This document shows positions 4,687 through 7,231 of a DNA stretch of 64,000 bases, piece after piece; position 1 is the stretch's first letter, and every line of letters starts with the position of its first letter. The notes below the pieces were generated by a model. It ran no database searches. It had not been told where the DNA came from and saw only the letters and a program-made list of their open reading frames with translations. The position numbers and the translations under genes were made by a program. Source of the stretch: an uncultured Candidatus Rokubacteria bacterium (lineage in GTDB: Bacteria; Methylomirabilota; Methylomirabilia; Rokubacteriales; DASRDR01); NCBI GenBank assembly GCA_963826115.1, contig CAWGVS010000005.1:1824001-1888000 (forward strand). Direction: 5' to 3'.

Positions 4687-6369
4687 ATGTACGACCGCGA
4701 GGCGATCGAGCGGATCCGGCGGCTACGGGAGGCCTGGGAGGCCGGCCCCCTGCGCGAGTTCGTCGAGCGTCAGCCCGAGTCACGGCCGGAGTACCGGACG
4801 GCGTCGGGCCTGCCGCGGCAGCGCGTCTACACGCCGGAGGATGTCGCCGGCCTCGAGCCCGAGGATCTCGGGCTGCCCGGACAGTACCCGTTCACGCGCG
4901 GCCCCTACCCCACGATGTACCGGGGCCGGCTCTGGACGATGCGGCAGATCGCCGGCTACGGGACCGGCGCGGACACGAACGCCCGCTTCCGCTACCTGAT
5001 CGCCCAGGGGCAGACCGGGCTGTCCGTCGACTTCGACATGCCGACGCTCATGGGCTACGACTCCGACGACCCGCGTTCGCTCGGGGAGGTCGGACGCGAA
5101 GGGGTCGCCATCGACACGCTGGACGACGTCGCCCAGCTCTTCGAGGGCATCGACCTCGAGCGAATCTCGGTGTCCATGACGATCAACCCGACGGCGTGGA
5201 TCCTCCTCGCCATGTACGTGGCCCTCGCCGAGTCCCGCGGCCTCGATCTCAACCGGCTGTCGGGGACGGTCCAAGCGGACATCCTCAAGGAGTACGTGGC
5301 GCAGAAGGAGTGGATCTTCCCGATCCGGCCGTCCATGCGGCTCATGCGCGACATGATCGTGTTCGCGGCCGAGCGGATGGCCCGCTACAACCCCATCAAC
5401 ATCAGCGGCTACCACATCTCCGAGGCCGGCGCGAACGCCGTCCAGGAGGTGGCCTTCACGATCGCGAACGGGATCGCCTACGTGGAGGAGGTCACGCGCG
5501 CCGGCGTTCCGGTCGACGCGTTCGCGCCCCGCCTGGCCTTCTACTTCATCGCCCAGGCGGACTTCTTCGAGGAGGCCGCGAAGTTCCGGGCCGCCCGCCG
5601 GATCTGGGCGCGCGTCATGCGCGACCGCTTCGGGGCCCAGCGGCCCGAGTCGATGCGCCTCCGCTTCCACTGCCAGACGGCGGCGGCGACCCTCACCAAG
5701 GCGCAGCCGATGGTCAACGTCGTGCGGACCGCCTTCCAGGCCCTGTCCGCGGTGCTCGGCGGCGCCCAGTCCCTCCACACCAACGGGCTCGACGAGGCGT
5801 ACGCGATTCCCTCCGAGGAGGCGATGAAGCTCGCGCTCCGGACCCAGCAGGTCATCGCCGAGGAGACCGGCGTGCCCGAGGTCATCGACCCGCTCGGGGG
5901 CTCCTTCTACGTGGAGGCCCTGACCGCCCGGATCGAGGCCGAGGTCCTCCGCATCCTCCAGAAGGTCGACGCGATGGGCGGCGCGATCCGCGCGATCGAG
6001 GAGGGGTACTTCCAGCGCGAGATCGCCGACAACGCCTACGAGATCGCGCGTCGCAAGGCCTCCGGCGAGCAGCCCGTCATCGGCGTCAACACGCACGTGG
6101 AGGCGTCCGAGCCGCCGCCGACCCCGATCCACCGGGTGGATCCGGCGGTCGAGGCGCGCCAGGTCGCCGCGGTCCAGGCCGTCCGCGCGCGCCGGGACGG
6201 CGGGAGGGTCGCGACCCTGCTGGACCGCCTTGCGGCCGAGGCCCAGGACCCCGGCGTCAACCTCATGCCCACCACGATCGAGCTGGTGAAGGCGCGGGCC
6301 ACGCTGGGCGAGATCGTCGCGCGACTCCGGGACGTCTTCGGTCGCTACGTCGAGCGACCGGTCTTCTGA
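4687..6369 (+). CDS. hcmA: 2-hydroxyisobutyryl-CoA mutase large subunit (B12-dependent acyl-CoA mutase)
   Basis: MCM-family barrel: PFTRGPYPTMY, WTMRQIAG, QSLHTN. Ile88 (RQIAG) and Asp115 (SVDFDMP) have the spacing of HcmA Ile90/Asp117, where MCM has Tyr and ICM has Phe. Confidence 0.88.
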   Translation: MYDREAIERIRRLREAWEAGPLREFVERQPESRPEYRTASGLPRQRVYTPEDVAGLEPEDLGLPGQYPFTRGPYPTMYRGRLWTMRQIAGYGTGADTNARFRYLIAQGQTGLSVDFDMPTLMGYDSDDPRSLGEVGREGVAIDTLDDVAQLFEGIDLERISVSMTINPTAWILLAMYVALAESRGLDLNRLSGTVQADILKEYVAQKEWIFPIRPSMRLMRDMIVFAAERMARYNPINISGYHISEAGANAVQEVAFTIANGIAYVEEVTRAGVPVDAFAPRLAFYFIAQADFFEEAAKFRAARRIWARVMRDRFGAQRPESMRLRFHCQTAAATLTKAQPMVNVVRTAFQALSAVLGGAQSLHTNGLDEAYAIPSEEAMKLALRTQQVIAEETGVPEVIDPLGGSFYVEALTARIEAEVLRILQKVDAMGGAIRAIEEGYFQREIADNAYEIARRKASGEQPVIGVNTHVEASEPPPTPIHRVDPAVEARQVAAVQAVRARRDGGRVATLLDRLAAEAQDPGVNLMPTTIELVKARATLGEIVARLRDVFGRYVERPVF

Positions 6370-6381
6370 CGGGAGGGTTCG

Positions 6382-6741
6382 ATGAAGCTCCTCATCAAGA
6401 GCGCGTGGGGGTCCGACGATCCGACGAAGGCGGCCTTCCCGTTCCTGCACGCCAACGCGTTCGTCGAGGCCGGCCACGAGGTCCAGATCTTCCTGCTCGG
6501 CGAGGCGGTCTCTCTGCTGCGGACCCCGGTGGCGAACGCGGTGGTCCCGGTCGGCTGGCCGCCGCTCGCCGAGATCCTCGCCAAGACGCGCGCCCACAAG
6601 ATCCCGCTTCACGTCTGAACGGCGTGCTCCCGGGCCCGTGGGGTCCTGGACGCGGATCTGGACGGCAAGAACGCGACGTTCGCCGTGCCCCCGACGCTCG
6701 TCGCCCTCACCGTGTGGGCGGACAAGATCCTGAGCGAGTGA
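6382..6741 (+). CDS. DsrE/DsrF-like protein, probable selenoprotein (Sec79 in U-T-A-C), 119 aa
   Basis: DsrE N-terminus (GSDDPTKAAFPF...VQIFLLGEAV). TGA at 6616-6618, and the frame continues TACSRARGV...LVALTVWADKILSE to a stop at 6739-6741, completing the fold. SECIS-like hairpin at 6628-6650. Confidence 0.85.
6628..6650 (+). promoter_or_regulatory. Bacterial SECIS-like stem-loop
   Basis: TCCCGGGCCC-GTG-GGGTCCTGGA starts 9 nt after the in-frame TGA: 10-position stem with one mismatch and one G-U pair, and a G-led apical loop. Confidence 0.7.
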
Positions 6742-6763
6742 GCCTCGCGGTCCGCGCGCGGAT

Positions 6764-7231
6764 CTATCGCTCCGTGTCGTGCACCGCCGGGCTCGTCAGG
6801 ATGAGGTGAGTCGCACGGGTCAGCCGATCGATGACCTCGACGCTGACGAGCGCGCCCGCCGCGCACCCCGGGAATAGGTTCGGGTCGCCGATCGTCACCT
6901 GCGCGCGCACCTCGACGCGGTCGAGGCGGCGCTGATTCGGATCCCCGATGAAGTCGGCGTGCACGGCCACCCCAGGCCGGAGCTCGAAGGTGTTGGGATC
7001 TCCGATCGCGACCCCCTGCTCGTCGAAGAACGTCAGGGTCGCCGGACACGCCTTGTCCGGGTCGGGGGGATTCTGCAGGACCGCGTTGATGCGCGCGGTC
7101 TGGGCGGCGTTCACCACGCCGAAGATCGGAAAGTCGTAGACGATGATGGCCTGGGCGGGGCTCGCGCAGGCAAGCGCGGCGAGTGTCAGGCCGAGAACGA
7201 CCAGAGACGGGGAGCGCCGATGATGGCTCAT
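6764..7231 (-). CDS. Secreted hypothetical protein with three IGDPN motifs and a probable disulfide
   Basis: GAGGAGG RBS; signal peptide ending SPAQA; beta-rich mature part with two Cys. Confidence 0.75.
   Translation of the reverse strand: MSHHRRSPSLVVLGLTLAALACASPAQAIIVYDFPIFGVVNAAQTARINAVLQNPPDPDKACPATLTFFDEQGVAIGDPNTFELRPGVAVHADFIGDPNQRRLDRVEVRAQVTIGDPNLFPGCAAGALVSVEVIDRLTRATHLILTSPAVHDTER

Follow-up and report, generated by a model that had tools for sequence, protein, structure and literature searches.

The locus at positions 6382–6741 of the DNA analyzed here raises a simple question: does an in-frame TGA end a short open reading frame (ORF), or does it encode selenocysteine (Sec, U)? 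The DNA, referred to below as the window, is a stretch of 64,000 nucleotides (nt; 71.8% G+C) from an uncultured Candidatus Rokubacteria bacterium (assembly GCA_963826115.1, contig CAWGVS010000005.1, positions 1,824,001 to 1,888,000). An earlier note on this DNA, made from its letters alone, had proposed a hidden selenoprotein of the DsrE family, with a U-x-x-C site and a selenocysteine insertion sequence (SECIS) just downstream of the TGA. Our answer is that 6382–6741 (plus strand) is very probably one gene, encoding a 119-residue cytoplasmic DsrE-fold protein in which the UGA at 6616–6618 is decoded as Sec79. The features on which the argument turns, all on the plus strand, are as follows.

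6371–6377, plus strand: Shine–Dalgarno-like GGGAGGG, 4 nt 5′ of the ATG (from the sequence; putative ribosome-binding site)
6382–6741, plus strand: complete frame of the DsrE-like selenoprotein (119 codons, Sec79 among them) followed by the true stop (from translation with TGA read as U)
6616–6618, plus strand: UGA read as selenocysteine (Sec79), first residue of UxxC (from the conserved TGA column and the alignment with TusD Cys78)
6625–6627, plus strand: TGC codon for Cys82, second residue of UxxC and likely the resolving cysteine (from an invariant column)
6628–6650, plus strand: SECIS-like hairpin with a GUG apical loop (from pairing and covariation in the Sec forms)
6739–6741, plus strand: true stop codon TGA (from the sequence and comparison with orthologues)

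Direct reading of the sequence agrees with the note's description of the frame. The ATG at 6382 starts a 78-codon ORF (6382–6618) terminated by the TGA at 6616–6618, and past this codon the same frame stays open for 40 further codons (6619–6738), up to a TGA at 6739–6741. The read-through peptide around and after the first TGA is V-U-T-A-C-S-R-A-R-G ... W-A-D-K-I-L-S-E, so that the motif in the window protein is U79-T-A-C82. The GGGAGGG element lies directly after the stop codon (6367–6369) of an upstream methylmalonyl-CoA mutase-like gene. G+C content by codon position is 0.69/0.42/0.96 upstream of the TGA and 0.68/0.53/0.95 downstream, and the neighboring mutase gene (0.70/0.46/0.96) is similar to both halves; the codon-position composition after the TGA points to translation.

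The TGA is conserved among relatives of the source organism. We searched 61 genomes of its order (the source genome, G000, included) in six frames and obtained matches in 38; 30 loci were returned and extracted. Column 79 is TGA in every one of the 27 loci that span it; these come from 27 different genomes and are 37–95% identical to the window protein. The motif is U-x-x-C in 26 of them and U-G-G-U in one. Three groups of Sec forms are evident: (i) orthologues of the window gene, which read H-V-U-[T/G]-A-C-S-R-A-R-G; (ii) proteins ∼45–50% identical, which read Y-V-U-G-R-C-S-V-A-R-G and (iii) proteins with the U-G-G-U motif. Two remote homologues (L054 and L055, 26–27% identical) have TGC at column 79. 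In a further locus, L053 (G036:C4, ∼259.9 kb), the match is limited to the last 36 residues and the upstream frame is unrelated and arginine-rich; this may be a frameshifted or decayed copy.

A wider sample was drawn from public genomes, one per species, from which the best 80 loci (61–94% identity) were taken. Column 79 is TGA in 52 of these, TGC in 25 and TGT in three. The two sets are not independent, because several loci are the same places in both. The note had asked whether homologues carry Cys opposite the TGA, and they do so in 28 of the best 80 public loci as well as in the two remote relatives; in a 14-sequence alignment of database proteins, 10 of the 13 homologues have C at this column. 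Neither TAA nor TAG occurs at column 79 in any relative or in any of the best 80 public loci. The stop codon at the 3′ end of the orthologues, by comparison, switches between TGA and TAG (TAG in L037, L038, L040 and others). By their bin labels, the TGA forms come from Methylomirabilota/Rokubacteria (those closest to the window), Alphaproteobacteria and Stellaceae, Chloroflexota, Binatia, Acidobacteriota, Actinomycetota, Eremiobacteraceae and some Beta- and Gammaproteobacteria, and the Cys forms from Verrucomicrobiota, Bacteroidota and three Pseudomonadota bins. We also note a TGA-containing locus, L063 (82% identical), in a bin labeled Nitrosotalea, an archaeon; the tree described below places it among Rokubacteria sequences, and it is probably a mis-binned bacterial contig.

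By the pattern of substitutions, the codons downstream of the TGA are under purifying selection. For codons 80–119, the ratio of nonsynonymous to synonymous substitution rates (dN/dS) is 0.025–0.73 in 11 of 12 pairs that include the window gene, and 0.93 in the remaining pair, which has seven differences. Summed over the 12 pairs, differences at the three codon positions number 44/49/125 downstream of the TGA and 98/74/283 upstream.

The two halves of the frame also belong to one domain, and the assignment to the DsrE family made in the note stands. With C in place of U, the read-through protein matches the Pfam DsrE/DsrF-like family PF02635 (E = 3.7e-11; 43.6 bits, cut-off 22.7) over residues 13–117, i.e. 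across the TGA. An AlphaFold2 model of all 119 residues, built from a 26-sequence alignment, has a mean predicted local distance difference test score of 98.0 and a predicted template modeling score of 0.91. A product that ended at residue 78 would have neither the active-site residue nor the final two helices and two strands of the DsrE fold. Searches of the model against the PDB with Foldseek return DsrE-type proteins as the top matches: YchN (1jx7, E = 3.7e-07), DsrE (2hy5_A), 3pnx, TusD (2d1p_A) and 3mc3. In profile searches of PDB sequences, column 79 aligns with the Cys of 3mc3, with the first Cys of the YchN C-x-x-C ... R-G motif and with the Cys at residue 90 of the 2d1p_A chain, which by count is native TusD Cys78 behind a 12-residue tag. 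Passages of PMC3397948 state that sulfur binds DsrE-Cys78 and that the superfamily has its active site at Cys78 of DsrE/TusD. C79/U79, C82 and R86 are invariant in the 26-sequence alignment, and C82 is also invariant in the 14-sequence alignment. Since strand 76–79 leads into helix 80–86 in the model, Sec79 is predicted to lie at the N-terminus of the helix, with Cys82 in its first turn.

The hairpin begins 9 nt past the TGA, where the note had placed it, and consists of a 10-nt arm, the GUG loop and a second 10-nt arm (6628–6650). The stem has up to 10 pairs, with one C·U mismatch in the window copy, and the loop begins 19 nt after the UGA. For bacterial SECIS elements, PMC1088965 asks for a stem–loop directly 3′ of the UGA whose small apical loop includes a G, and the window hairpin has both that position and such a loop. 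Because the fold of the single sequence is no better than that of shuffled sequences, we used covariation as evidence instead, counting ten pairs between columns 13–22 and 26–35 after the TGA. In the 27 relatives' loci, 87.6% of the cells are paired and four pairs have changes on both sides; the covariation score is 0.191, compared with 0.077 for shuffled alignments (none of 500 as high) and at most 0.111 for slid controls. Among 63 distinct Sec forms, the corresponding values are 86.3% of cells paired, five pairs (60 cells) changed on both sides and a covariation of 0.253 versus 0.114 (again none of 500 as high; slid controls at most 0.124). Individual pairs illustrate this: pair 21–27 is CG in 49 sequences, UA in 13 and unpaired in one, and pair 17–31 is GC in 43, UA in six, AU in four, GU in three, UG in two and something else in five. 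The apical loop reads G-K-G; its columns 23 and 25 are both G in all, or nearly all, of the 63 sequences.

Related sequences can outscore shuffles even where there is no structure, and for this reason the decisive control is provided by the Cys forms, whose encoded peptide is almost identical. In the 28 Cys forms only 50.4% of the cells are paired (124 of 500 shuffles as high), three pairs have changes on both sides and the covariation is 0.072 versus 0.056 for shuffles (78 of 500 as high). The difference persists when the peptide is held constant. Among loci that encode exactly CSRARGV, 31 Sec forms form a mean of 8.97 of the 10 pairs (range 6–10) and 15 Cys forms a mean of 5.27 (range 4–8). 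Codon choice follows the same division: the Sec forms use GCC (25) and GCU (12) for Ala, CGU (25) and CGG (12) for Arg and GGG (25) and GGA (12) for Gly, and the Cys forms use GCG, GCA, GCU and GCC, then AGG, AGA, CGC and CGG, then GGA, GGG and GGC, respectively. Judged by these comparisons, the hairpin is a SECIS-like element and not a by-product of the encoded peptide, and the covariation confined to the Sec forms agrees with the note's interpretation of it.

The source genome (6.24 Mb in 12 contigs, 99% complete) also has the machinery that selenocysteine insertion needs. The note had asked for selA, selB, selC and selD, and all four are present with scores above the curated cut-offs: selA at 576.5 bits (cut-off 267.9), selB adjoining it at 347.8 bits (cut-off 242.25), tRNA-Sec (selC) beside both at 76.9 bits (cut-off 47), called by ARAGORN as tRNA-SeC with anticodon TCA, and selD at 393 bits (cut-off 125), with one in-frame TGA. 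The selD product is itself a selenoprotein, its TGA lying in the motif G-A-G-U-A-C-K (L001 1531–1533; G000:C5, ∼561.7 kb). After this TGA comes a hairpin of eight perfect pairs whose loop is GGA; its distance from the UGA equals that of the hairpin in the DsrE-like gene. Across the order, selA was found in 52 of the 61 genomes and in 23 of the 27 genomes that have the TGA form.

Several observations weigh against this interpretation of the gene or of its product. Frames that continue past a TGA are common in the window, where 186 of 357 TGA-ended frames (≥60 codons, stop-to-stop) are also open 40 codons further. The hairpin region (50 nt after the TGA) folds at −20.9 kcal/mol, compared with a shuffle mean of −20.2 (z = −0.25), and an equal or better energy is reached by 71 of the 200 shuffles. 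Rfam returned seven weak and irrelevant matches in 6300–6900 (E ≤ 10), with no SECIS family among them. The NCBIfam models for TusD equivalogs score the read-through protein below threshold (TIGR03012, 22.5 versus 89.25 bits; NF001237, 22.1 versus 92 bits). Near full-length database proteins P0002, P0003 and P0004 (69–73% identical) carry W, L and R, respectively, at column 79. Four genomes with the TGA form (G025, G032, G042 and G055) gave no selA match at E ≤ 1e-30. Finally, the insertion of selenocysteine itself is something that we infer from sequence. Rfam models of bacterial SECIS elements are lineage-specific. The open frame and the hairpin alone are within chance, and the comparative evidence decides; it is this evidence, with the coding signature downstream of the TGA, that lifts the observation above chance.

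Two alternatives draw on these points. In the first, the TGA is a genuine stop: the cell makes a fragment of 78 residues, and the 40 codons that follow are left over, untranslated, from a gene in decay. Gene callers read the locus in this way, with the 78-residue product found in an 88-member protein cluster, and the abundance of open frames after TGA codons in the window is in its favor. A genuine stop is hard to reconcile with a TGA kept in 27 of 27 relatives and in 52 of 80 public loci across many phyla and never exchanged for TAA or TAG, with the third-position bias and dN/dS below 1 downstream, or with a Pfam match and a confident model that require both halves, and we give it next to no probability.

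In the second alternative, the UGA is read through without selenocysteine, by a near-cognate tRNA (Trp, Cys or Arg) or by context suppression, with the hairpin acting only as a stimulator. The W, L and R residues of P0002–P0004 and the four relatives without a detected selA speak for it. Those residues could be real substitutions or the result of gene calls under another code, W being, at a guess, a gene call with TGA read as Trp; we also note that P0004 has a signal-like leader. The selA gap is only a mild counterpoint and not a refutation, because the four genomes are fragmented metagenome bins (92–99% complete, in 170–580 contigs). Set against read-through of this kind are the complete Sec machinery in the genome, a column that alternates only with Cys codons, as expected for selenocysteine, the coincidence of that column with the catalytic Cys position of the superfamily according to the passages of PMC3397948 cited above, and the small G-containing loop at the same distance as in the genome's selD. 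We regard it as very unlikely. An alternative genetic code was also considered and rejected, since TGA is otherwise an ordinary stop in the genome: it ends the upstream mutase gene, a thiamine-pyrophosphate enzyme gene and the DsrE-like gene itself. Selenocysteine at the in-frame TGA, in a UxxC motif as the note had proposed, is the reading supported by the conserved TGA, the Sec/Cys column, the Sec-specific hairpin and the Sec machinery.

It is also necessary to ask whether the TGA could be an error in the sequence, as the note had allowed. A DNA contig from a public run is identical to the window over 6476–6631, covering the TGA; two divergent DNA contigs from another study cover it as well, as does a contig spanning 6582–6732 from a metatranscriptome library. 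The comparison over 6300–6800 lists no difference at 6616–6618, with 15 differences not displayed. Support for the TGA from these contigs is weak, because DNA may be present in the RNA library and the window itself may derive from the sample of the first run. The recurrence of the TGA in 27 genomes of the same order and in 52 public loci (in part the same places) speaks against an error.

Under decoding as selenocysteine, the path to the product can be outlined. The hairpin at 6628–6650 would serve as a bacterial SECIS, recruiting SelB with Sec-tRNA(Sec) to the ribosome at the UGA, and translation would end at the next UGA (6739–6741), which is without such an element. In the protein, Sec79 could attack a sulfane-sulfur or disulfide substrate, for example a persulfide or polysulfide; Cys82 would then resolve the Se–S adduct, giving an intramolecular Se79–S82 selenenylsulfide, from which a thiol reductant of the cell would regenerate the protein. 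We put forward this selenol chemistry on sulfane sulfur or disulfides, with the Se79–S82 selenenylsulfide as the resolved state, tentatively, as a proposal with a somewhat less than even chance of being right. It is drawn from anatomy (the DsrE fold, Sec at the persulfide position and Cys82), because no partner gene is conserved.

The genomic context counts against a firm statement on function. A methylmalonyl-CoA mutase large-subunit-like gene (4687–6369, plus strand; PF01642, E = 1.4e-210) ends 12 nt upstream of the DsrE-like gene, and this neighbor is kept in just seven loci, L026–L032, all from the window's genus. The flanks of 10 other loci vary and hold no conserved partner: they include major facilitator superfamily transporters (two loci), cytochrome c (two), methyltransferases (two), an ATP-binding cassette ATPase and a 2-hydroxyacid dehydrogenase, among others. 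The only contexts of a sulfur or redox flavor are a metallo-beta-lactamase–rhodanese fusion in L034 (4–1497, minus strand) and a 1-Cys peroxiredoxin in L036 (1958–3355, minus strand). Fusions of metallo-beta-lactamase and rhodanese domains are typical of persulfide metabolism. In the source genome the DsrE-like gene is present in a single copy and is not adjacent to selD, selA or selB, which are on other contigs or at distant positions. No DsrF/DsrH or TusC/TusB-like neighbor was seen and the downstream ORF has no Pfam family; DsrF/H were not searched for genome-wide.

Two other functions can be weighed against this background. A thiol (selenol) peroxidase or general thiol–disulfide oxidoreductase, in place of a protein of sulfur transfer or sulfane sulfur, would agree with UxxC as a classic redox motif, with the tabulation of the DsrE-like protein among ‘known redox proteins’ by motif in PMC1088965, with the 1-Cys peroxiredoxin gene next to L036 and with the name ‘predicted peroxiredoxin’ that the Joint Genome Institute (JGI) gives to relatives. 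The Pfam scan of the read-through protein found PF02635 alone, with no AhpC/TSA, Redoxin or peroxiredoxin domain, and the fold matches are all DsrE-type; identity as a peroxiredoxin was rejected on these grounds. The Sec column is, moreover, that of the persulfide-carrying Cys of DsrE/TusD, and L034 adjoins the rhodanese fusion. A peroxidase or oxidoreductase role is unlikely on balance, with a real chance of being correct. [quoted passage not shown] The NCBIfam scan (E ≤ 0.01) gave no match to a YedF model, no SirA-like domain is present, and the gene stands apart from selD, selA and selB in variable contexts. Handling of selenium or metals is improbable by comparison with the chemistry on sulfane sulfur outlined above. 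NCBIfam offers no dedicated model that would name or rescue the protein, and identity with DsrE or TusD as an equivalog was rejected, since the scores are far under the equivalog cut-offs.

The remaining features of the neighborhood are not part of this argument. The mutase-like gene at 4687–6369 (plus strand) encodes only the N-terminal substrate-binding part (560 residues; TIGR00641, 688 bits, below the cut-off for the full-length equivalog) and is probably a split mutase with its B12-binding subunit encoded elsewhere. The thiamine-pyrophosphate enzyme gene lies upstream of it, and a dienelactone-hydrolase-like gene lies downstream of the DsrE-like gene on the opposite strand. An ORF at 6764–7231 (minus strand) has no Pfam family and no counterpart in the relatives' flanks. 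A second, at 6609–7049 (minus strand), was rejected as a real gene: the loci match only its residues ∼85–146, antisense to the 3′ end of the DsrE-like gene. Both are probably shadow ORFs of a G+C-rich genome. A scan for promoters and terminators in 6250–7000 found none.

How does the protein relate to known systems? As the note stated, there were already reports of DsrE-like selenoproteins in metagenomes. In its tabulated results, PMC1088965 (2005) reports a DsrE-like selenoprotein assigned to PF02635, with UxxC and a predicted SECIS, in two Sargasso Sea sequences. Later tables list one member from Desulfovibrio vulgaris (PMC1794560, 2006) and three members (PMC1976440, 2007), and the family also appears in those of two reviews (PMC9312934, 2022 and PMC13188914, 2026), the latter giving WP_014524487.1 as its example and remarking of such families that, in function, they ‘remain largely uncharacterized’. 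The window protein shares with this family the Pfam family, a UxxC motif with one Sec, Cys homologues and a G in a small apical loop; the agreement is by motif and Pfam family, as these are given in the published tables. It differs in its origin. The window gene comes from a soil genome that has Methylomirabilota/Rokubacteria bins as its nearest named relatives; the sources given in the papers are Deltaproteobacteria and marine samples. UGGU forms with two Sec residues are seen here, a variant missing from the reviews' tables, where the family has only UxxC and a single Sec. By these comparisons of sequence, the window protein is a new, unannotated member of the DsrE-like selenoprotein family that has been listed since 2005. 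By title and abstract, we found nothing on selenocysteine in Rokubacteria; members from these phyla may already be recorded in the supplementary tables of the selenoproteome surveys.

Among proteins of established structure, DsrE of the DsrEFH complex (Allochromatium vinosum, 2hy5) and TusD of TusBCD (Escherichia coli, 2d1p) have the same fold (Foldseek probability 1.00, template modeling score 0.75), and Sec79 is aligned with their active-site Cys78, the persulfide carrier in the passages cited (PMC3397948). The window protein differs from both in having Sec for Cys, in its sub-cut-off equivalog score, in lacking DsrF/H or TusB/C-like neighbors and in its second Cys (UxxC), which is absent at that spacing in the aligned TusD segment. 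The best structural match, E. coli YchN (1jx7), has C-x-x-C ... R-G at the same columns, but is only ∼20% identical and has Cys in place of Sec; its function is likewise unknown. [quoted passage not shown] A further comparison is with the Cys orthologues from Verrucomicrobiota, Bacteroidota and some Pseudomonadota, annotated as ‘DsrE family protein’ or ‘predicted peroxiredoxin’. They are 61–69% identical over the whole domain and have the same motif with C for U (TGC or TGT), but lack a conserved hairpin and frequently have a twin-arginine-like leader.

The note's expectation that standard gene callers truncate the gene is confirmed by the databases. The exact 78-residue product is present in a protein collection, in a cluster of 88 members; 40 members were read and 15 are listed, all of 78–79 residues, and the name, where one is given, is ‘predicted peroxiredoxin’ (JGI). 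Of the full-length proteins in the databases, those nearest to the window protein are for the most part Cys forms, 149 residues long and with a twin-arginine-like leader. The deposited product is a 78-residue stub whose cluster holds 88 truncated proteins, so that an entire clade of soil selenoproteins is wrongly called in the public databases.

The relationship between Sec and Cys forms was examined in a quick maximum-likelihood tree of 95 rows and 119 columns, in which many forks are unresolved. L027–L040, L046 and L053 were left out, the first of these as largely the same places as named loci. The tree needs two changes of Sec/Cys label, compared with a mean of 25.9 for shuffled labels (none of 500 as low). 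Of these, one lies along the long branch that leads to the remote Cys outgroup; the second marks a cluster, nested among Sec forms, that takes in all 28 Cys orthologues and for which the Shimodaira–Hasegawa-like approximate likelihood ratio test value is 83 (not starred). By a simple pattern count, a twin-arginine-like leader of the M-I-R-R-S-F-L type is present in 24 of 30 Cys rows and in one of 65 Sec rows; the sole Sec row, L095 from an Acidobacteriota bin, has both the leader and the TGA. Since the leader is so frequent among them, the Cys orthologues are probably exported. The tree suggests one Sec-to-Cys replacement coupled to export, the direction being an inference from a long-branch root. 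Phyla are mixed within small clades, which points to horizontal transfer.

A third DsrE-like subfamily reads V-Y-V-U-G-G-U and has two in-frame TGAs 9 nt apart, followed by one strong hairpin with 9-nt arms and a GGG loop. In L136 (G033:C12), where the gene is on the minus strand, the first TGA is at 890–892 in plus-strand coordinates and the second lies 9 nt downstream in the gene. The same motif is present in L051, from a genome flagged as unpublished (G055). It is conceivable, although rather unlikely when all its parts are taken together, that the DsrE-like clade is a widespread soil-bacterial selenoenzyme for sulfane-sulfur chemistry in which Sec use tracks compartment, with cytoplasmic forms that combine Sec and SECIS, one nested clade that gained a twin-arginine export signal, exchanged Sec for Cys and lost the hairpin, and UGGU sister forms whose two Sec residues depend on one downstream hairpin.

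The identification of this gene opens no new category and settles no open question, the family's chemistry being a proposal. It adds a selenoprotein to Methylomirabilota-like soil bacteria and extends the DsrE-like selenoprotein family far past the Deltaproteobacteria and marine samples of its first listing. The Sec and Cys orthologues provide a clean natural control for SECIS constraint, in that the same peptide is encoded in both and the hairpin is present only with the UGA. If the compartment-linked scheme is true, the clade would show, in nature and with a clean phylogeny, a switch from Sec to Cys that is coupled to export, and its UGGU members would allow one to ask whether a single SECIS can serve two UGAs separated by 9 nt.

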